A stretch of 64,000 nt of DNA from Oscillospiraceae bacterium (lineage in GTDB: Bacteria > Bacillota > Clostridia > Oscillospirales > UBA929): NCBI GenBank assembly GCA_009784085.1, contig WRCJ01000001.1, positions 66 through 64,065 on the forward strand, read 5' to 3'. Made by a program: the position numbers and the translations under genes. The notes beneath the pieces are model-generated. The model did no database searches. It saw nothing but the letters and a program-made list of their open reading frames with translations, and was not told where the DNA came from. This document shows, piece after piece, positions 1 through 7,760 of the stretch (the stretch's first letter is position 1; every line of letters begins with the position of its first letter).

Positions 1-847
1 AGTTGACCAACCGGATGGCCGCTTGCGCAAAGCCCTTTTGCAGGGCCTCCCGAATGAGTTTCTCCCTCGCTTCCATGGTCACTGTCCCGTCTGGCTGATG
101 CTCGGGCTGGAACAGATAGTATTCCTCGTCAAACTCCTCTTTTGACAACCCTTCCGGAATGCCAAATACCCGGGCTACCTCGCTATTGTACGCAACAATA
201 TCGCCGTTTTCATCCCATATCATGCAGGGCAGCATGGTTGAATACAGCAAGTCGTTCAAGCGTTGTTCCGCTTCTTCCAGCCGCAAATCCGTGATATCCT
301 GCGCGAAGACAAATATGCCTTCATCCCCATCTCTGGCCCCATCTCTGTCCCTGGCCCCATCTCTGTCGAGCGCGATTCGTCTATAGGTAATCCGATAGAT
401 GCGGCTTTCCCCGGACGGCCATATGATAACATCATCCTCGAAGAAATCGTTTTCTCCGGACATGACGCGCGAAATCCTGCGGGACGCTTTCCTGAAAAAA
501 TCAGAGTTTTCAAACAATTTGCATGCATCGAGAACCGACATGCCAATAAACCCGCCGTTATCCCCATGATCCCCATTGTCCCCGTTGCCCCCATTGCCCC
601 TATTGTCCGGAACGCCCGCCAGGGTTAAGAGGCTGTCGCTATAGTAGAGGATTTTCGTGTCGGGATCCAGCAGCAGGGAATAGCTGAACGCACTGTCCAT
701 CAGGGCCTTGAAATAATGGTTGATCTTTCCAGGTTCTTGTGCGCCGGTTTTTTGCACGCCTGTTTCTTGTGCGCCTGTTTCTTGTGCGCCTGTTTCTTGT
801 ACCTGCCCCCCTGTGGGTTCATCCACAGTGCGCGAACGATTGGTCAT
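1..847 (-). CDS. PAS-like sensor/signalling protein, N-terminal part (gene runs off the left edge)
   Basis: The minus-strand frame is open from ATG at 847 to the window edge. It is absent from the ORF track because there is no stop in the window. My translation (MTNRSRTVDEP...FKALMDSAFSYSLLLDPDTKILYYSDSLL...IYRITYRRIAL...FVFAQDITDLRLEEAEQRL...MLPCMIWDENGDIVAYNSEVARVFG) reads like two PAS-type modules. It contains in-frame QETGA and DRDGA tandem repeats. Confidence 0.5.
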   Translation of the reverse strand, partial: MTNRSRTVDEPTGGQVQETGAQETGAQETGVQKTGAQEPGKINHYFKALMDSAFSYSLLLDPDTKILYYSDSLLTLAGVPDNRGNGGNGDNGDHGDNGGFIGMSVLDACKLFENSDFFRKASRRISRVMSGENDFFEDDVIIWPSGESRIYRITYRRIALDRDGARDRDGARDGDEGIFVFAQDITDLRLEEAEQRLNDLLYSTMLPCMIWDENGDIVAYNSEVARVFGIPEGLSKEEFDEEYYLFQPEHQPDGTVTMEAREKLIREALQKGFAQAAIRLVN

Positions 848-1038
848 TTCATCAGGCACTCACATCCCCCTTTTCTCGTTCACGTTCCGATGTGCCAGCA
901 TACCACTGTGCCAGCATACCTCCGATATATCGTATATCGTGAAAATCTTGTCGTTTGTTAAGGTTGGATCTGCCCTCGGCGGGGGCGCCCCTACTGCATG
1001 TGTATTGTCGGGTCAACAACATCGGGTCAACTTGTATC

Positions 1039-1067
1039 TTGCGGTATGGGCGTAAATGTGGTATCAT
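1039..1067 (+). promoter_or_regulatory. Sigma-70-type promoter candidate (TTGCGG, 17 nt spacer, TGgTATCAT extended -10)
   Basis: -35 ttgcgg at 1039-1044, a 17-nt spacer, and -10 tatcat at 1062-1067 preceded by tg. It is followed by RBS GAGGGGG (1077-1083) and an in-frame TTG at 1091. Confidence 0.4.
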
Positions 1068-1090
1068 GCAAGTATAGAGGGGGCTTTGCT

Positions 1091-1381
1091 TTGACGGAAC
1101 TAAAACAGCTTGAAGCATTGGCGGTGCCTGTCGTGAAACAAGCCATCGGAGCATACCGCGAAGTAATGATATCCCCCGAATTTCGTGAATTGGAACGTCT
1201 GCGGGCTGACGCTCTCCATAATGAAGCGGCGGCTCTACGTAATGCGCGGAGCGAAGGTAGGGCTGAAGGAATGTTTAGTGTGGCTCGTAATCTTTTAGAA
1301 ATGAATATGCCACTTGACCAAATTACCACGGCCACCGGGCTGACCCACGCCGAAGTGGAAGCCTTACGGGACGCCAACTGA
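1091..1381 (+). CDS. Stand-alone C-terminal fragment of an Rpn/YhgA-like (PD-(D/E)XK, TIGR01784-type) recombination-promoting nuclease; either a gene remnant or a small RpnS-like protein
   Basis: The ORF-track frame is 998..1381. Only the part from ELKQLEAL onward (..VVKQAIGAYREVMISPEFRELERLRADALHNEAAALRNARSEGRAEGMFSVARNLLEMNMPLDQITTATGLTHAEVEAL) resembles the conserved C-terminal tail of this family, and the N-terminal nuclease domain is absent. TTG at 1091 has a good RBS 7 nt upstream. Confidence 0.5.
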   Translation: MTELKQLEALAVPVVKQAIGAYREVMISPEFRELERLRADALHNEAAALRNARSEGRAEGMFSVARNLLEMNMPLDQITTATGLTHAEVEALRDAN

Positions 1382-1401
1382 ATTAGCGTCCCGCCCCCTT
1401 T
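1094..1401 (+). repeat. Direct repeat copy 1 (about 310 bp, roughly 90 percent identical by eye to 2271-2584)
   Basis: Base-by-base comparison of 1094-1401 with 2271-2584. Copy 2 has a 6-bp indel (gaagaa) near the start, and the mismatches cluster in the middle. Confidence 0.85.
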
Positions 1402-1404
1402 TTT
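1367..1404 (+). terminator. Rho-independent terminator
   Basis: Stem cgggacgc (1367-1374) pairs with gcgtcccg (1386-1393). It is followed by ccccc and tttttt (1399-1404). Confidence 0.55.
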
Positions 1405-1457
1405 GTAAGTTTATATCCTGCGTCCGTGAGGGTGCCCGTTTCGGCGTTATATCCGAA

Positions 1458-2168
1458 ATGATTCGTGATATGGCAACAAAGGATTCCTTGGCACGGTGTA
1501 GCAGAGAGCAATTGGCACTTATTATTTTTGGAGAAAACGATATGAACGAAAAAACAAGGAAAAGAGTAATGGACTATTTTTGTGGCTTCAACGGCAATCC
1601 TATTGAACAGTGTGCGAGATTAGCATATGGTGATCTTCGTCGTACGCTGCGAGGCATCGGAGATCTACCGGATAAAGAATCTTATGTCAGCAGCATATGC
1701 AAAATTATTTCAGACCGCATAGATAGCAACGAACCGATATATGACTTTAACAAATGGCATGATGGTGTCTGCAACGAAATAATAACAGCGTCAGAAAACT
1801 TCCCGCAATTTAAGGATAAAGTTACAATGTCGTCCTACAACAAGCACTTTCATTATGGTCAAGCCCAAAAATGGCTTAATGTCGCATTCAAAAATATGGT
1901 GATTTTTGAACTTCATGATAAATATCCGAAGCTTGAGCGAACTAAAAAACACCTGCACATTCCCGTTGACCAGTATATAATCAACGGGGTAGCCAAAGAG
2001 TTCGGTGAAAAAAGGCCGAAAAATGCACCTTATGCATGGAGCAGATGGAATCGTGAACAGTATATTGGATATCAGAAGGCCTTGAAAAACAGAATTCCAT
2101 CCGATAAGCCTCCGATTGAGTGGGAAATAGAGAATTGGCCGAGATTTAAGAAAGAGTTGTCATTATGA
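1458..2168 (+). CDS. Hypothetical protein, 236 aa, AT-rich orphan
   Basis: Clean ORF in a visibly AT-richer segment than its neighbours. I recognise no family. Lys/Asn/Ile-rich codon usage contrasts with the surrounding genes. Confidence 0.6.
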   Translation: MIRDMATKDSLARCSREQLALIIFGENDMNEKTRKRVMDYFCGFNGNPIEQCARLAYGDLRRTLRGIGDLPDKESYVSSICKIISDRIDSNEPIYDFNKWHDGVCNEIITASENFPQFKDKVTMSSYNKHFHYGQAQKWLNVAFKNMVIFELHDKYPKLERTKKHLHIPVDQYIINGVAKEFGEKRPKNAPYAWSRWNREQYIGYQKALKNRIPSDKPPIEWEIENWPRFKKELSL

Positions 2169-2198
2169 ATCTGTCGTAAAAGTGCTGTTTATTATGAG

Positions 2199-2564
2199 GT
2201 GCGGAAACTCCCAAAAGACATTGATACTGAAAACGAATTGGAGCTTATGCTGTCGCTGTTCCGGGCAAAAACGGAAGAAGAACTAAAACAGCTTGAAGCA
2301 TTGGAGGTGCCTGTCGTGAAACAAGCAATCGGAGCATACCGCGAAGTAATGATATCCCCAGAATTTCGCGAGTTAGAACGTCTGCGGGCTGACGCTCTCC
2401 ATAATGAAGCGTCGGCATTGCGTAACGCTGAACAGAAAGGCAGGGCCGAAGGACTGCTTAATGTGGCTCGTAATCTTTTAGAAATGAATATGCCACTTGA
2501 CCAAATTACCACGGCCACCGGGCTAACCCGCGCCGAAGTGGAAGCCTTACGGAACGCTAACTAA
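2199..2564 (+). CDS. Second C-terminal fragment of an Rpn/YhgA-like nuclease (remnant or small protein)
   Basis: LPKDIDTENELELMLSLFRAKTEEELKQLEALEVPVVKQAIGAYREVMISPEFRELERLRADALHNEASALRNAEQKGRAEGLLNVARNLLEMNMPLDQITTATGLTRAEVEAL. This is a paralogue of 1091..1381 and also lacks the nuclease domain. Confidence 0.45.
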   Translation: MRKLPKDIDTENELELMLSLFRAKTEEELKQLEALEVPVVKQAIGAYREVMISPEFRELERLRADALHNEASALRNAEQKGRAEGLLNVARNLLEMNMPLDQITTATGLTRAEVEALRNAN

Positions 2565-2584
2565 GTTAGCGTCCCGCCCCCTTT
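2271..2584 (+). repeat. Direct repeat copy 2 (partner of 1094-1401)
   Basis: See copy 1. This copy ends in the same gcgtcccgcccccttt hairpin tail. Confidence 0.85.
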
Positions 2585-2627
2585 ATGTCTTCGCATAGGG
2601 GATAAGCAAGCGGAAGGAGATGCTTTC

Positions 2628-3311
2628 GTGACAGGCACACTTGTCAATATGGCCTCAATACTGGTGGGAGGCGGGCTCGGCCTATTGTTCCGGGGGAAAA
2701 TCCCCCCCAAGATGTCGGAGGGGATTACCAAAGCCCTCGGCCTTTGTGTATGCGTCATCGGTGTCTCAGGCGCCCTGCAGGGCGACACGATGCTACTGGT
2801 GTCCTCCCTGGCCCTCGGCGCGTTGACCGGCGAACTCCTGCACATTGACGCGGGGCTAAATCGCTTCGGCGACTGGCTACAGAAAAAATTTAGCCGCAGC
2901 GATAAAAAATCCACCTTCTCCGAAGGTTTTGTCACGACGACGCTATTGTTCTGCGTGGGCGCTATGGCCATTGTCGGTTCCATCGACAGCGGGCTCAGGG
3001 GCGATCGCAGTATCATTTTCACAAAATCCATCCTGGATGGCTTCAGCGCCATGTTGTTTGCCTCAACGCTGGGCTATGGCGTGTTGTTCTCGGCGGTCAC
3101 TGTCCTTGTCTATCAGGGAAGCATAGAAATCTTCGCGGGCGCCTTGCAGAATATCCTGACACCCGCGCTGGTCACGCAGATTTCCGCGGCAGGGAGCGTG
3201 ATGATATTGGGGATCGGGCTGATCATGACGGTAAACATCCGGTTGAAGGTGGCCAACTTGCTGCCCGGGCTGTTGTTTGCGGTGGCTTATTATTACCTGT
3301 TCTTGCAATAA
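2628..3311 (+). CDS. DUF554 (YqgA-like) integral membrane protein
   Basis: 227 aa and multi-pass hydrophobic. The N-terminus GTLVNMASILVGGGLGLLF and the ...FTKSILDGFSAMLFASTLGYGV block resemble YqgA/DUF554. Confidence 0.7.
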   Translation: MTGTLVNMASILVGGGLGLLFRGKIPPKMSEGITKALGLCVCVIGVSGALQGDTMLLVSSLALGALTGELLHIDAGLNRFGDWLQKKFSRSDKKSTFSEGFVTTTLLFCVGAMAIVGSIDSGLRGDRSIIFTKSILDGFSAMLFASTLGYGVLFSAVTVLVYQGSIEIFAGALQNILTPALVTQISAAGSVMILGIGLIMTVNIRLKVANLLPGLLFAVAYYYLFLQ

Positions 3312-3339
3312 ATGCAGTAAAAACAGAGGTAAAATTTTG

Positions 3340-3368
3340 TTGCCCTCCATAGGCAACTGTGCTATAAT
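3340..3368 (+). promoter_or_regulatory. Promoter candidate for the lyase gene (TTGCCC, 17 nt spacer, TGcTATAAT)
   Basis: -10 tataat at 3363-3368 preceded by tgc, and -35 ttgccc at 3340-3345. Confidence 0.4.
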
Positions 3369-3457
3369 GGAGACGTAGCATGGCAGGTGTGTTGCAGTTA
3401 GACAACGCACAGCAAGTAGTAATTTTGTAGTACGGTAGTACGGAAAGGAGCACCCTC

Positions 3458-4903
3458 GTGCAAAAAATCAAATTTTATGGCGACCCTGTCCCCCTGGAGA
3501 TGCATAAAGTCCGCATCGTCCAAAAGCTCAACCTGATCCCCATCGAAGAGCGCGTCAAGGCCGTGACCGACGCCGGCAACAATACCTTCCTCCTGCAAAA
3601 CAAGGATGTCTTTATCGACATGCTCACCGACAGCGGCGTGAACGCCATGAGCGACCGTCAGCTCAGCGCCATGATGGTCGCCGACGACTCATACGCCGGC
3701 AGCGCCACCCACACGAAACTGGAAAGCAAGATTCAGGAGTATTTCGGCAAGACGTATTTCCTCCCCGCCCATCAGGGGCGCGCCTGCGAGCACCTGCTGG
3801 CCAAAGTGTTCGTCAAGCCGGGCGACATCATGATAACCAATTACCATTTCACCACCACCAAAGCGCATGTCCTGCTGGCAGGCGGCACGGTGAAGGAGCT
3901 GTACTATCCCGACGCTTTGGATCCCGAGAGCGACAACCCCTTCAAGGGGAACATGCCGCCCGATCGGCTCAGGGAGGCTATCGCGGAGTACGGCCGTGAT
4001 CGCATTGCCTTTGTGCGCATGGAATCCGGCACCAATCTCATCGGCGGCCAGCCATTTTCCTTGGGCAACCTGAAAGAGATATACCAAATCTGCCAGGAGC
4101 ATGGCCTTCCGCTGGTGCAGGACATGAGCCTGTTGGCTGACAACCTGTATTTTATCAAAGAGCGCGAGCCCGCATACAAGGACGCCGAGATTTGCGACAT
4201 CGCGAGGGAGCTGTCCGACAACACCGACATCATCTATTTCTCGGCCCGCAAACTGGGCCATGCCCGGGGCGGCGGCCTTTGCACAAGCGACCGCGATTAC
4301 TATTTGAAGCTTCGCGACTTGGTTCCCATCTATGAGGGCTTCCTGACCTACGGCGGCATGAGCGTGCGCGAAATCGAGGCGATCGCCGTTGGCCTTGAAG
4401 AGACCATGGACTATGAGATGATCAACCAAGGGCCGGAGTTTATCGCCTTCATGGTCGGCGAGTTGAACAAACGGGGCGTGCCCGTGGTGAATCCGGCGGG
4501 CGGCTTGGGTTGCCACCTGGATGCCATGCGCTTTGTCGATCATGTCCCGCAGTCTGAGTATCCTGCGGGCGCGCTGGGTTCTGCTTTGATGATTGCCGGC
4601 AGTATCCGGGGCATGGAACGCGGCACCCTTTCGGAGGAACGCAATCCCGATGGATCCGAGCATTACTCCAACATGGAGCTCTTGCGTTTGGCGTTGCCCC
4701 GCAGGGTCTTCACCCTCTCGCAGATCAAGTATGCCATCGACCGGGTCACTTGGCTCTACGAGAATCGCCACTTGGTCGGCGGCCTGAAGTTCCTGGAGGA
4801 GCCAAAAATGCTGCGCTTCTTCGTCGGCCGGCTGGCGCCGGTGTCCGACTGGCAGGAAAAACTGGTGGCTAAGTTCAAAGAGGACTTTGGGGACAGCCTG
4901 TAA
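3458..4903 (+). CDS. Beta-eliminating lyase of the tryptophanase / tyrosine phenol-lyase family (PLP-dependent)
   Basis: 481 aa. Contains LLQNKDVFIDMLTDSGVNAMSDRQ, YAGS, HQGRACEH and a PLP-lysine context FSARKLGHARGGGLC, comparable to SAKKD..GG..C of TnaA/TPL. Tnase and TPL cannot be told apart by eye. Confidence 0.8.
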   Translation: MQKIKFYGDPVPLEMHKVRIVQKLNLIPIEERVKAVTDAGNNTFLLQNKDVFIDMLTDSGVNAMSDRQLSAMMVADDSYAGSATHTKLESKIQEYFGKTYFLPAHQGRACEHLLAKVFVKPGDIMITNYHFTTTKAHVLLAGGTVKELYYPDALDPESDNPFKGNMPPDRLREAIAEYGRDRIAFVRMESGTNLIGGQPFSLGNLKEIYQICQEHGLPLVQDMSLLADNLYFIKEREPAYKDAEICDIARELSDNTDIIYFSARKLGHARGGGLCTSDRDYYLKLRDLVPIYEGFLTYGGMSVREIEAIAVGLEETMDYEMINQGPEFIAFMVGELNKRGVPVVNPAGGLGCHLDAMRFVDHVPQSEYPAGALGSALMIAGSIRGMERGTLSEERNPDGSEHYSNMELLRLALPRRVFTLSQIKYAIDRVTWLYENRHLVGGLKFLEEPKMLRFFVGRLAPVSDWQEKLVAKFKEDFGDSL

Positions 4904-4964
4904 GCCTATAAGCGTTAATGGGCAAAGGACGAAGCGATTCAAGGATGCCTCAATAATGTAAACA

Positions 4965-5010
4965 AGCGCGAAAGTATGGGCGCTGACCCATGCTTTCGCG
5001 CTTAAGTTTT
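4965..5010 (+). terminator. Rho-independent terminator after the lyase gene
   Basis: A 16-bp stem, agcgcgaaagtatggg (4965-4980) with cccatgctttcgcgct (4987-5002) and one G-U pair, followed by taagtttt. Confidence 0.65.
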
Positions 5011-5051
5011 ATATAAATGATAAATGTTAAAGGGGAAAGAGAGGGTAGGGA

Positions 5052-7760
5052 ATGGCTGTCTATCTAAAACCCACGGAAACCGTGCTGCAAGAACTTGACA
5101 CAAACAAGGCCGGATTGACGCGGGAGGAAGCGGCCCGGCGGCTCGTAGAAAACGGCGGCAACGAGCTGGCAAAGGCCAAGAAGAAGGGCATCCCCCGCCG
5201 CTTTTTGGAGCAACTCATCAACCCGATGGTGCTGGTGCTGATTGCCGCCGCCGCAGTTTCTGTCGTCTTGGCTGCGCTGGAGGGCGGGAACCTGCATGAA
5301 TATGCGGAAGCGGGCATTATCCTTGTGGTTGTCTTGCTCAATAGCATACTCGGCGTTTTTCAGGAGAACAAGGCGGAAAAAGCCATTGAAGCCTTACAGG
5401 AAATGAGCGCCGCCACCGCCAAAGTCCGGCGCGGCGGCGACGTAGCGCGGATTCCGGCTAGGGAGCTTGTCGTGGGCGACATTGTCCTGTTGGAGGCCGG
5501 CGACGCTGTCCCCGCCGATATACGCCTGTTGCAATGCGCCAGCCTCCAAATTGAGGAAGCCGCCCTGACGGGCGAGTCAGTCCCCGTGGGGAAAATAACC
5601 TCCGCCTTGCGCGGCGACGATTCCGGCGCCGCTTCCGACGGTGATTCCGGCGGTGATTCTGGCGGCGTGACCTTGGGCGATCGCCGGAATATGGCGTATA
5701 TGGGTTCGGACGTAACCTATGGGCGGGGCGAGGGCGTCGTCGCCGCCGTGGGCATGGATACCGAGATGGGCAAAATCGCGGGGATTATCCAGAGCACCGC
5801 GGAGGGGGAAACGCCCTTGCAAAGGCGCCTTTCCCAGTTAAGCAAGATACTCAGCATCCTGGTGCTCGGCATATGCGCGGTGATTTTCGTGGTCCAGCTC
5901 ATCCGCGCGGGAGAAATCAGCACCGATGTTATCATGCCCAGCTTTATGCTGGCGGTGTCCCTGGCGGTCGCCGCTATCCCGGAGGGGCTTGCGGCTGTCA
6001 TCACCATCGTGCTTTCCATCGGCGTGACCAACATGGCGAAACGCAACGCCATCATCCGCCGCCTGCCTGCGGTAGAAACCCTTGGATGTACGCAGATTAT
6101 CTGTTCTGACAAGACGGGTACGCTGACGCAGAACAAGATGACGGTCGTGGAGAGTTATGGCGACGAGAAGCTGGTTGCAAAGGCGATGGCCCTGTGTTGC
6201 GATTCCCAGCTTTCCCAAGATGGCGAGATCATGGGCGACCCTACCGAAAACGCGCTCGTGGCGCATGCGCTTGCAAATGGGCTCGATAAAAACGCGCTCG
6301 CGGATCAATTCCCCCGCGTCGCCGAGGCGCCCTTTGACAGCGCCCGCAAACTGATGTCCACCATCCATAAAACGCCCAGGGGGTTCGTCCAATTTACCAA
6401 AGGCGCGCCCGAAGAGGTGTTGCGGGTTTGTTCCCATGCGCTTGTGGAGGGGAACACCGGGGACACCGGGGGCGCCGCGCCGGTACCCATGGTGCCCATG
6501 GCGCCCATGGTACCCATGTCGATAGGTATCTTGGAGAAAATAGACGCGCAAAACATGGATTACGCGAACCGGGCGTTGCGCGTGCTTGCTTGCGCCTATA
6601 AAGAGTACGACACGCTTCCCGTAAGCTGCGGCCCGGCGGATATCGAAAGCGGCATGACCTTTGTCGGATTGACGGCTATGATCGACCCTGTTCGCCCGGA
6701 GGCCAAAGCGGCGGTGGATTCCTGCAACAGCTCCGGCATCAAGGTGGTGATGATCACCGGCGACCATAAGGACACGGCTATCGCCATCGCGAGGGATCTT
6801 GGGATTATCACAAGCATGGATCAAGCCATCACGGGGCGCGAGCTGGAGAAGCTGTCCGATGACGAATTCGAAGACCGGATTGAGAATATCTTTGTCTATG
6901 CGCGCGTTCAGCCGGATCATAAGGTGCGTATTGTCAATATGTGGAAACACAAAGGATATATCACCGCCATGACCGGCGACGGCGTAAACGACGCGCCGGC
7001 TATCAAATCCGGCGATATCGGCGTGGGGATGGGCATCACCGGCACGGACGTAACGAAGAATGTCGCCGACATGGTGCTGTCGGACGATAATTTCGCCACG
7101 ATCGTCGCTGCGGTGGAGGAAGGCCGCAGGATCTACGAAAATATCAAAAAGACCATCCAGTTTTTATTGTCTTCCAATGCAAGCGAGGTCTTATCGATTT
7201 TTATTGCCATATTGATGGGCTTTGAACTGTTTTTGCCGATCCATCTGCTGTATATCAACTTGATTACCGATAGCATCCCCGCTATCGCCCTCGGCATGGA
7301 CCCCGCTGAATCCGGTATCATGGAGCAACCGCCAAGGGGGCGGAAGGAAGGGATTTTCTCGGACGGCCTTGGTTTCGATACCCTATATCAAGGGGTTCTC
7401 ATCACGATACTGACCCTGGCCGCCTATTTTATTGTGGATATTTGGGAAGGCCATACCGCTGCGATGACGGCGGCTTTCTACACGATGTCCATGAGTGAAG
7501 TCTTCCACGCAGTCAATTTGCGCTCTAGGAAGCAAAATATTTTTACCCTGAAAACAACCAACAAGCTCATGTGGGGCGCGATAGGGCTTTCGCTTGTCTT
7601 GACGCTTACGGTGATCTATGTGCCTGCTCTTGCCGATGTCTTCTCCTTGCAGGCGTTGACCCTCGCGGATTTGGCTCTCACGACGGGGCTTTCGCTTACG
7701 ATAATCCCGATGGTCGAGGCGGTCAAGGCCATCTTGCGGTGGGTGCGCAGGCTTCGATAG
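5052..7760 (+). CDS. Calcium-translocating P-type ATPase (PMCA/SERCA-like, P2 type)
   Basis: 902 aa. Contains the phosphorylation motif ICSDKTGTLTQNKMTV, TGES, MITGDHKDTA and GDGVNDAPA, plus 10-TM-style hydrophobic blocks. It carries the low-complexity inserts GDDSGAASDGDSGGDSGG and PVPMVPMAPMVPM. Confidence 0.88.
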   Translation: MAVYLKPTETVLQELDTNKAGLTREEAARRLVENGGNELAKAKKKGIPRRFLEQLINPMVLVLIAAAAVSVVLAALEGGNLHEYAEAGIILVVVLLNSILGVFQENKAEKAIEALQEMSAATAKVRRGGDVARIPARELVVGDIVLLEAGDAVPADIRLLQCASLQIEEAALTGESVPVGKITSALRGDDSGAASDGDSGGDSGGVTLGDRRNMAYMGSDVTYGRGEGVVAAVGMDTEMGKIAGIIQSTAEGETPLQRRLSQLSKILSILVLGICAVIFVVQLIRAGEISTDVIMPSFMLAVSLAVAAIPEGLAAVITIVLSIGVTNMAKRNAIIRRLPAVETLGCTQIICSDKTGTLTQNKMTVVESYGDEKLVAKAMALCCDSQLSQDGEIMGDPTENALVAHALANGLDKNALADQFPRVAEAPFDSARKLMSTIHKTPRGFVQFTKGAPEEVLRVCSHALVEGNTGDTGGAAPVPMVPMAPMVPMSIGILEKIDAQNMDYANRALRVLACAYKEYDTLPVSCGPADIESGMTFVGLTAMIDPVRPEAKAAVDSCNSSGIKVVMITGDHKDTAIAIARDLGIITSMDQAITGRELEKLSDDEFEDRIENIFVYARVQPDHKVRIVNMWKHKGYITAMTGDGVNDAPAIKSGDIGVGMGITGTDVTKNVADMVLSDDNFATIVAAVEEGRRIYENIKKTIQFLLSSNASEVLSIFIAILMGFELFLPIHLLYINLITDSIPAIALGMDPAESGIMEQPPRGRKEGIFSDGLGFDTLYQGVLITILTLAAYFIVDIWEGHTAAMTAAFYTMSMSEVFHAVNLRSRKQNIFTLKTTNKLMWGAIGLSLVLTLTVIYVPALADVFSLQALTLADLALTTGLSLTIIPMVEAVKAILRWVRRLR

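Follow-up and report, generated by a model that had tools for sequence, protein, structure and literature searches.

The closest known relatives of the locus examined here are the Rpn proteins, in which a toxic nuclease (RpnL) and a small antitoxin (RpnS) are encoded in one reading frame. RpnS antitoxins have been shown in Escherichia coli and Clostridioides difficile to be translated from internal starts, and in E. coli RpnS neutralizes RpnL by binding to it through the tail that the two share (Zhong et al. 2023, PMC10400941). Stand-alone RpnS genes have already been described (rpnSs, ypaA, and DUF4351), as have loss and fusion events at such loci (PMC10400941); what the first-pass annotation of the present DNA said of RpnS antitoxins made from internal starts is accurate. 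That DNA is a 64-kb stretch (the window) of a metagenome-assembled Oscillospiraceae genome from the termite gut, and the element in question is a pair of direct repeats, each encoding the C-terminal tail of an Rpn protein, on either side of an AT-rich gene that we call the cargo gene. We read it as a decayed rpn toxin-antitoxin locus in which the nuclease domains have been lost and the tails are presumably still expressed and, if active, would be toxin-less RpnS antitoxins, and we give this reading as a whole a probability of about 0.65. The anatomy and origin are very probably as described below; that the tails continue to function as antitoxins is a tentative proposition, somewhat short of even odds.

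The features of the locus are as follows, all of them on the plus strand.
1039-1067, plus strand: probable native rpn promoter, with a -35 element TTGCGG (1039-1044), a 17-nt spacer, and an extended -10 element TG-G-TATCAT (1059-1067).
1076-1083, plus strand: Shine-Dalgarno (SD) sequence AGAGGGGG, 7 nt ahead of the TTG start and identical in the related locus L025 (GTAGAGGGGGCCTTGCCTTG).
1091-1381, plus strand: copy 1, by its sequence an rpn gene minus codons ~6-183 in frame; 96 amino acids (aa), M-T-E-L-K plus an RpnS-type tail.
1097-1105, plus strand: deletion junction GAACTAAAA (E-L-K), a 9-nt microhomology between the codons for MTELKY at the N terminus and those for TEEELKQ in the tail.
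1120-1135, plus strand: weakened internal start of copy 1, GGCGGTG (1120-1126), 6 nt, and GTG (1133-1135).
1229-1277, plus strand: hypervariable patch in the between-copy comparison (…AALRNARSEGRAEGMFS… in copy 1), lying at 2412-2460 in copy 2 (…SALRNAEQKGRAEGLLN…).
1367-1404, plus strand: hairpin (stem 1367-1374/1386-1393) that overlaps the stop codon and is followed by C5T6, within the repeat.
1402-1541, plus strand: spacer from copy 1 to the cargo gene, holding the cargo ribosome-binding site (RBS; GGAG) near 1529-1541.
1542-2168, plus strand: cargo gene FWE59_00015, 208 aa, GC content 0.40 against 0.58 for the window, with a start backed by the homologs P0002 and P0003.
2164-2189, plus strand: right-hand junction, with the cargo stop codon TGA (2166-2168) inside an ATGAA microhomology and then ~20 nt of decayed rpn sequence.
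2190-2564, plus strand: copy 2, apparently an rpn gene without its 5' part, from codon ~149 to the stop; FWE59_00020 is the 108-aa NCBI product from TTG at 2238.
2303-2564, plus strand: intact internal start and RpnS open reading frame (ORF) of copy 2, GGAGGTG (2303-2309), 6 nt, GTG at 2316, 82 codons, and the stop at 2562-2564.
2550-2576, plus strand: copy 2 hairpin with the stop codon in its loop (free energy [dG] of -16.7 kcal/mol and z-score of -2.3 by RNA folding).

When the window was aligned with itself, the direct repeats (1097-1401 and 2280-2584) were 90.9% identical over 307 columns (E 1e-120), in agreement with the 90% that had been estimated by eye. A repeat search reported them as a pair of ungapped blocks (149 and 148 nt, with 93% identity in each) at a spacing of 1183; with a 6-nt indel allowed, the homology begins at about 1092/2271. 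There was no third copy in the whole 64-kb window. Against the NCBIfam profile TIGR01784 (273 positions), residues 7 to 91 of copy 1 matched model positions 184-272 (E 7e-9) and the copy 2 ORF matched positions 151-272 (E 5e-11), both scoring below the cut-off, and the proposal that each copy has only C-terminal Rpn homology was thereby borne out. A hidden Markov model (HMM) built from 20 full-length family members placed copy 1 at positions 182-267 (82 bits) and copy 2 at positions 149-267 (147 bits). PF12784 (PDDEXK_2) matched neither copy; the full-length relatives in L025 and L026 match it at E 1e-31 and 1e-33. PF14261 (DUF4351) likewise gave no match to the tails, and PF27070 (HTH_Rpn_C) has a weak precomputed Pfam match on both products in L061, an independent assembly of the locus. 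In searches of the 64-kb window by tblastn with 25 full-length or near-full-length Rpn proteins and by the family HMM against six-frame ORFs, only the two tails were found and no nuclease domain or remnant of one, as had been claimed for the nuclease domain and for full-length rpn genes.

L061, deposited at ENA, is 99.6% identical to the window over 5.2 kb, with zero differences in 772-5015. An assembly artifact is ruled out by this independent assembly, in which the locus has the same arrangement. The two assemblies are identical across the locus and so offered no strain-level variation as a probe of current selection.

Copy 1 has the structure expected of an rpn gene that lost its middle. 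Positions 1036-1105, which span the -35 and extended -10 elements, the SD, the TTG, and the first five codons, are 86% identical to the 5' end of the full-length rpn gene in L025, which likewise starts with TTG and reads M-T-E-L-K-Y-K-F. In copy 1, M-T-E-L-K runs straight into Q-L-E-A-L, a sequence that in full-length genes follows T-E-E-E-L-K some 180 codons downstream, and the junction 9-mer GAACTAAAA is also present in copy 2 at 2280-2288. Given that the junction is a 9-nt repeat and that the 5' end matches L025, codons ~6-183, comprising the whole PD-(D/E)XK domain, were therefore removed in frame. The in-frame exact repeats between the two deletion sites are 3 to 9 nt long in 24 full-length genes (9 nt in 2/24), and these lengths fit a sporadic, slippage-type deletion.

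Because copy 1 appears to be a full-length rpn gene after an in-frame deletion, its promoter, RBS, and TTG would be native rpnL signals and not those of an independent orphan gene. The first-pass annotation had described these signals as copy 1's own: they are present and homologous to those of L025, but their ownership has to be reassigned. The same promoter layout (TTG..., 17 nt, TGnTATAnT) lies upstream of most full-length family members, and all family members have an SD at this position. A strict sigma-70 scan did not flag the copy 1 promoter, whose -35 element matches at 3/6 positions. The terminator proposed at 1367-1404 is a real hairpin with an 8-bp stem and C5T6 (dG -15.6 kcal/mol, z-score -1.5 by RNA folding), preserved downstream of a related tail in L040, but it is not canonical, and a terminator scan found no canonical terminator around the tails.

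The same fusion was found in L059, where a 92-aa protein (P0060) with an rpn-type promoter, an SD, and an ATG start reads M-T-E-L-K-Q-L-E-G. The closest matches of P0060 are the full-length genes of L028 and L027 for the 5' end (about 90%) and L024 and L027 for the tail (85%), whereas the 5' end of copy 1 in the window best matches full-length L025, and copy 1 and the L059 minigene are only 78-80% alike. Given these different closest full-length genes and this low likeness, the two deletions are therefore independent, and the copy 1 type of deletion is recurrent. A different in-frame deletion was seen in P0017 (189 aa), which joins residues 1-43 of full-length Rpn (MTELKYKF...DSISEF) to GCEEYCSEF..., so that the catalytic core is gone and both ends are kept.

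Judged by its homologies, copy 2 is what remains of another rpn gene, its 3' part, and the truncation point falls at the stop codon of the foreign gene. Over 2190-2420 it has 84-90% DNA identity to the full-length genes of L025, L024, and L033. At its left edge, the homology of the cargo gene to its closest relative (L001) passes the stop codon and ends at 2169, and Rpn DNA homology (L023 and L024) restarts at about 2170-2183; the cargo end ...TTATGAA overlaps the rpn sequence CA(C/T)GAA to give the ATGAA microhomology. The ~20 nt after the cargo stop carry small indels relative to rpn genes, and clean in-frame homology runs from about 2190 (Y-Y-E-V-R-K-L-P-K-D). Rpn similarity within the 3' end of the cargo ORF (tblastn alignments from 2016) was weak and gappy and was rejected as alignment drift. 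The cargo ORF and copy 2 share one reading frame, which we regard as a coincidence. In place of the two free-standing orphan ORFs described earlier, the locus would thus hold one internally deleted and one 5'-truncated rpn gene.

We also examined the region within the tails that corresponds to an RpnS start. We compared 31 distinct sequences of the family, whose consensus is TGGAGGTG, 6 nt, and GTG or ATG. The codon matching 2316 is GTG in 19/31 and ATG in 12/31, never another valine codon, although GTG accounts for only 33% of the family's valine codons (naive P of 6e-10 for start-codon bias). A perfect upstream GGAGG is found in 25/31 sequences, and the combination of an SD with GTG/ATG is conserved in 31/31. 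In addition, ten short proteins, independently called in metagenomes, begin exactly at this internal start as MTQAIGAY.... This is the signature expected of an RpnS translation start, which would yield a small protein of ~82 aa, and the sequence evidence for it is strong. The start is intact in copy 2 and in all mid-contig truncated relatives that keep the region. Copy 1 is the sole member of the 31 with GGCGG, through a GAG>GCG change at 1121-1123, which would mark either the onset of decay or a takeover of initiation by the native start upstream.

AlphaFold modeled the 96-aa copy 1 product (pLDDT 86) as a 42-residue helix (residues 29-70) and then a helix-turn-helix (HTH) of two short helices. 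With Foldseek, the last 40 residues of this predicted model superposed on E. coli RpnA-S (7TH0) at 0.8 A, with a target TM of 0.82 and 32% identity, a match with a weak E-value over a small domain; 7TH0 is also the best PDB match by sequence (E 0.06). The tails thus have the C-terminal Rpn homology, the predicted fold, the four-residue repeat zone, and, at the sequence level, the separate start of an RpnS. As for RpnL, the copies descend from full-length rpn genes and lack the PD-(D/E)XK domain with its D...E-x-K/Q core. Separately, the phage family phrog_5416 (66 aa) matched both tails weakly over the HTH part (E 0.002 and 0.0008), and phages may carry stand-alone RpnS-like proteins; a tblastn search of annotated phage genomes gave a sole match, inside a YhgA-like transposase gene.

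Divergence between the two tails is concentrated in their center. The flanks (1097-1228 and 1278-1401) are 95.5% and 94.4% identical, with 3 nonsynonymous and 7 synonymous changes (nonsynonymous-to-synonymous ratio [pN/pS] of 0.14, binomial P of 0.003), and there the two copies are mutually closest of all sequences, with 88-90% identity to L025. The central patch is 65% identical (clustering P<5e-5; pN/pS 0.38), and the tail as a whole is 90% identical with a dN/dS of 0.23. Given these low pN/pS and dN/dS values, the tails evolved under constraint after diverging. In the patch, synonymous and nonsynonymous changes are both elevated, suggesting that positive selection alone is a poorer explanation than exchange with another paralogue. 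The patch encodes RSEGRAEGMFS in copy 1 and EQKGRAEGLLN in copy 2, following the pattern (S/K)(E/G)GR-AEG(M/L), and expanded four- or eight-residue repeats occupy this position in stand-alone tail relatives: EAKGRAEG five times in P0093 (117 aa, from a Synergistaceae metagenome-assembled genome [MAG]), runs of AEG[LR] in P0105, and also P0101. In E. coli, RpnS/RpnL specificity is set in the repeat zone, and a difference of one repeat abolishes neutralization (PMC10400941).

The same anatomy would also be produced if the tails were inert debris, that is, pseudogene fragments that are untranslated or inactive and are intact only because the deletions were recent. Decay is common in the family, and debris is therefore a serious null hypothesis. 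We counted the classes of family members among loci selected by their tails, a search biased toward copies that retain the tail, and found 22 intact full-length genes, frameshifted or interrupted copies in L013, L016, and L047/L048, eight 5'-truncated mid-contig copies, and two deletion minigenes; no clustering of the 5'-truncation breakpoints was established, the numbers being too small and the search so biased. Such degraded copies are abundant in the same metagenomes, and two more fragments need no function. Several further points weigh against functional antitoxins and, in part, against our reading as a whole. The mutation unique to copy 1 weakens a conserved internal SD and could reflect decay; a protein is predicted from copy 1 by the JGI and ENA gene callers only, and not in the NCBI annotation. 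Among the sequences retrieved, the tails of full-length Rpn proteins were at most 71% identical to either copy, and no cognate was found; the one full-length Oscillospiraceae Rpn retrieved (P0203) belongs to another assembly (MDR2357449 versus MCL2747023/4). The copy 1 architecture occurs in only 2 of ~100 tail relatives, with independent origins, giving no evidence of inheritance across lineages or long-term retention, and the selection signal may wholly predate the loss of the nuclease domain. The tandem ancestor, in turn, is inferred, not observed. Set against debris are two open frames (96 and 82-131 codons) with native start signals, the flank pN/pS of 0.14, and the internal start preserved in the truncated relatives; moreover, the rpn promoter and SD ahead of copy 1 are conserved and look strong, which makes the production of some protein likely. 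On balance, we consider it unlikely, though by no means negligible, that the tails are debris.

For the decayed toxin-antitoxin locus, we propose the following history. Two sister rpn genes would have stood in tandem, in the same orientation, in the interval bounded by the PAS-sensor and DUF554 genes; each would have encoded a toxic PD-(D/E)XK RpnL and, from a conserved internal RBS and GTG, an RpnS. The upstream gene would then have lost codons ~6-183 by slippage-type deletion between its in-frame 9-nt GAACTAAAA repeats, leaving the 96-aa product. In a further step, foreign AT-rich DNA (the spacer and the 208-aa gene) would have taken the place of the downstream gene's first ~148 codons and of the sequence between the two genes, joined at ATGAA. 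The internal start and 82-codon frame of copy 2 could be read from any transcript running through the cargo gene. Tandem rpn-rpn pairs occur in L027 (1486-2280 and 2336-2470; near-identical starts 850 nt apart) and in L015 (5548-6345 and 6817-7053; a divergent partner), and in L052 one rpn gene (3-584) is followed by a separate downstream tail (676-906), which is the published rpnSs arrangement.

It is improbable that the repeats were instead made in one step, by Campbell-type or Rpn-promoted recombination, when circular or linear DNA carrying a tail and the cargo gene struck a single rpn gene or stand-alone tail. Direct repeats on either side of a compositionally foreign gene, microhomologies at both junctions, and tails that are mutually closest relatives with 95% identity in the flanks would all be expected of such an event, and Rpn proteins have been proposed to promote such recombination (PMC10400941). 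However, the left copy extends from the rpn start codon, the right one only from codon ~149; the repeat ends are thus two different breakpoints, with no symmetric duplication. Copies made in one step would start out identical, yet the divergence here is 5% in the flanks and 35% in the center. Relatives of the cargo gene were beside Rpn tails in 0/8 loci (L001-L008), and an extra deletion would still be required for copy 1. Because copy 1 appears to be a deleted rpn gene and copy 2 a truncated second one, the repeats are most simply taken as two sister rpn genes and not as a duplication from cargo capture. The suggestion that the pair is a recombination scar therefore holds for the two junctions, both of which look like scars of illegitimate recombination, and fails for the repeats, with their sister-gene pattern of 95% identity in the flanks and 65% in the center.

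In the evolution of type II toxin-antitoxin systems, orphan or degenerate loci and "anti-addiction" modules arise when the toxin is lost and the antitoxin persists. The present locus is like these in that the toxin is deleted while antitoxin coding capacity is kept, and in its horizontal transfer and turnover. It differs in that the Rpn toxin and antitoxin share one reading frame, and toxin loss therefore needs a deletion within the gene; here, that loss would have happened twice, by two routes. With the RpnL/RpnS systems (RpnA-E, RpnP2, and C. difficile), the tails share the TIGR01784 family (PF12784 in full-length relatives), the internal SD and start, the long helix plus HTH, and a variable four-residue repeat zone, but the nuclease (toxin) part is gone from both window copies. 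The window RpnS is also predicted to be longer (82 aa), with its repeat zone ~38 residues after the start versus the 8-20 reported. Separate rpnS genes (ypaA downstream of rpnE, rpnCSs; DUF4351/PF14261; HTH_Rpn_C, PF27070) are similarly stand-alone Rpn C-terminal modules derived from a neighboring rpn gene. Those known lie downstream of an intact rpnL and arose by tail duplication, whereas copy 1 would have arisen by in-frame excision of the nuclease, with the rpnL promoter and start kept and no intact rpnL nearby. The excision itself resembles short-direct-repeat (microhomology-mediated, RecA-independent) deletions: ~540 bp lie between 9-nt repeats of which one is kept, and the event recurred in L059. 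The mechanism is ordinary and is notable only in that the repeats encode a conserved E-L-K that brackets the nuclease domain in frame.

What is new here is the nuclease-less pair, the evidence that in-frame deletion has more than once left an RpnS-only gene under the rpnL promoter, and the sequence evidence extending the internal start to a PDDEXK_2 subfamily that is spread over several phyla of termite-gut bacteria. The locus illustrates clearly, from nature, how a gene of the "antitoxin within a toxin" type can lose its toxin, and it does so by two neighboring routes: a microhomology deletion, which is seen again in an unrelated contig, and displacement by foreign DNA. Active remnants would be orphan antitoxins able to blunt Rpn-based defense or addiction; inactive ones would warn against taking intact small ORFs in defense-gene wreckage to be functional. 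The locus is in this respect an instructive but fairly ordinary case of defense-gene decay. A bolder version is a long shot: the conserved E-L-K codon repeats would make rpn prone to recurrent in-frame "toxin ejection," the resulting RpnS-only gene, under the stronger rpnL promoter, would be kept as anti-addiction against mobile Rpn toxins, and, separately, the cargo may be a new defense or anti-defense gene that displaced the toxin.

In the wider family, full-length relatives are plentiful (857 hits at E<=1e-10); they are typically 260-300 aa and carry PF12784 and the NCBI name Rpn family nucleases. At 76-80% tail identity, the family occurs in MAGs of Coriobacteriales, Synergistaceae, and Clostridiales, so it moves horizontally; related sequences came from termite-gut MAGs. 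A terminal HTH module (ARNLLxMNMPLDQIxTATGLTRxEVExL) in L053 (2849-2965), L054 (937-1104), and L055 (1403-1744) is 72-77% identical to the window tails and is carried by Rpn-like proteins with N-terminal domains unrelated to those of the main subfamily, a pattern that points to modular shuffling of tails between Rpn subfamilies.

The middle gene had been called AT rich, and its GC content, listed above, agrees. The cargo gene product had no match in Pfam, NCBIfam, PADLOC, PHROGs, or PDB. A profile search assigned it to a family of 3,490 cluster representatives (632 at E<=1e-30), and AlphaFold predicted an all-helical protein with 10 helices (pLDDT 86, pTM 0.85). Conserved motifs are GQAQKWLN, H-x-P-x-D, WSRW, and PIEWE, and the invariants are D31, R34, GQAQKWLN, H139-x-P-x-D143, W166, and E195. 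We examined relatives in L001-L008 and L062, whose contexts are mobile or defense related: in L001 a WYL regulator immediately precedes the relative and a PDC-S10-like candidate defense gene follows two genes on, those in L006-L008 adjoin a PDC-S37/Hhe-like helicase, likewise a candidate defense gene, beside a serine recombinase, and one adjoins a MobF relaxase on a Corynebacterium plasmid. The spacer (1402-1541) showed no similarity to the fetched loci save for its last ~13 nt, no promoter-like site, and no Rfam match; an origin from the WYL gene, or from another neighbor of cargo relatives, was dropped for lack of similarity. That the cargo gene and copy 2 form one unit, a new effector fused or coupled to an RpnS-type tail (for example, by in-frame TGA read-through, the nuclease being swapped for another domain), is very hard to credit despite the common reading frame with its single TGA, the lack of a terminator between them in a strict scan, and the modularity of Rpn tails on unrelated N-terminal domains (L053-L055), because a shared frame arises by chance in one case in three, indels in the ~20 nt past the stop, as compared with rpn genes, indicate decay, the cargo gene stops exactly where its stand-alone homologs do, nearly all of the best 150 of its 3,490 relatives are themselves stand-alone proteins of 200-290 aa, and 0/8 of the relatives' loci have an Rpn tail.

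The surroundings are an ordinary chromosomal context and no defense island. To the left, a PAS-sensor gene on the minus strand has its start codon at 847, the window beginning inside the gene; to the right, a DUF554 membrane protein gene (2628-3311, plus strand) is followed by genes for a beta-eliminating lyase and a P-type ATPase. No Rfam RNA families were found in window positions 1-6000. Within the PAS-sensor gene, a 15-nt tandem repeat (729-803, minus strand) encodes a short repeated peptide near the N terminus of the sensor. L061 is exactly one unit shorter there (window positions 757-771 are missing), and the copy number of this repeat is therefore polymorphic in the population. The other differences between L061 and the window, five substitutions and a 1-nt indel, are confined to ~100 nt (5016-5111) that cover the P-type ATPase gene's 5' end and the bases immediately before it, the surrounding 4 kb being identical. 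The P-type ATPase ORF also contains a 12-nt tandem repeat (5612-5671), of which four overlapping copies are 71-75% identical.

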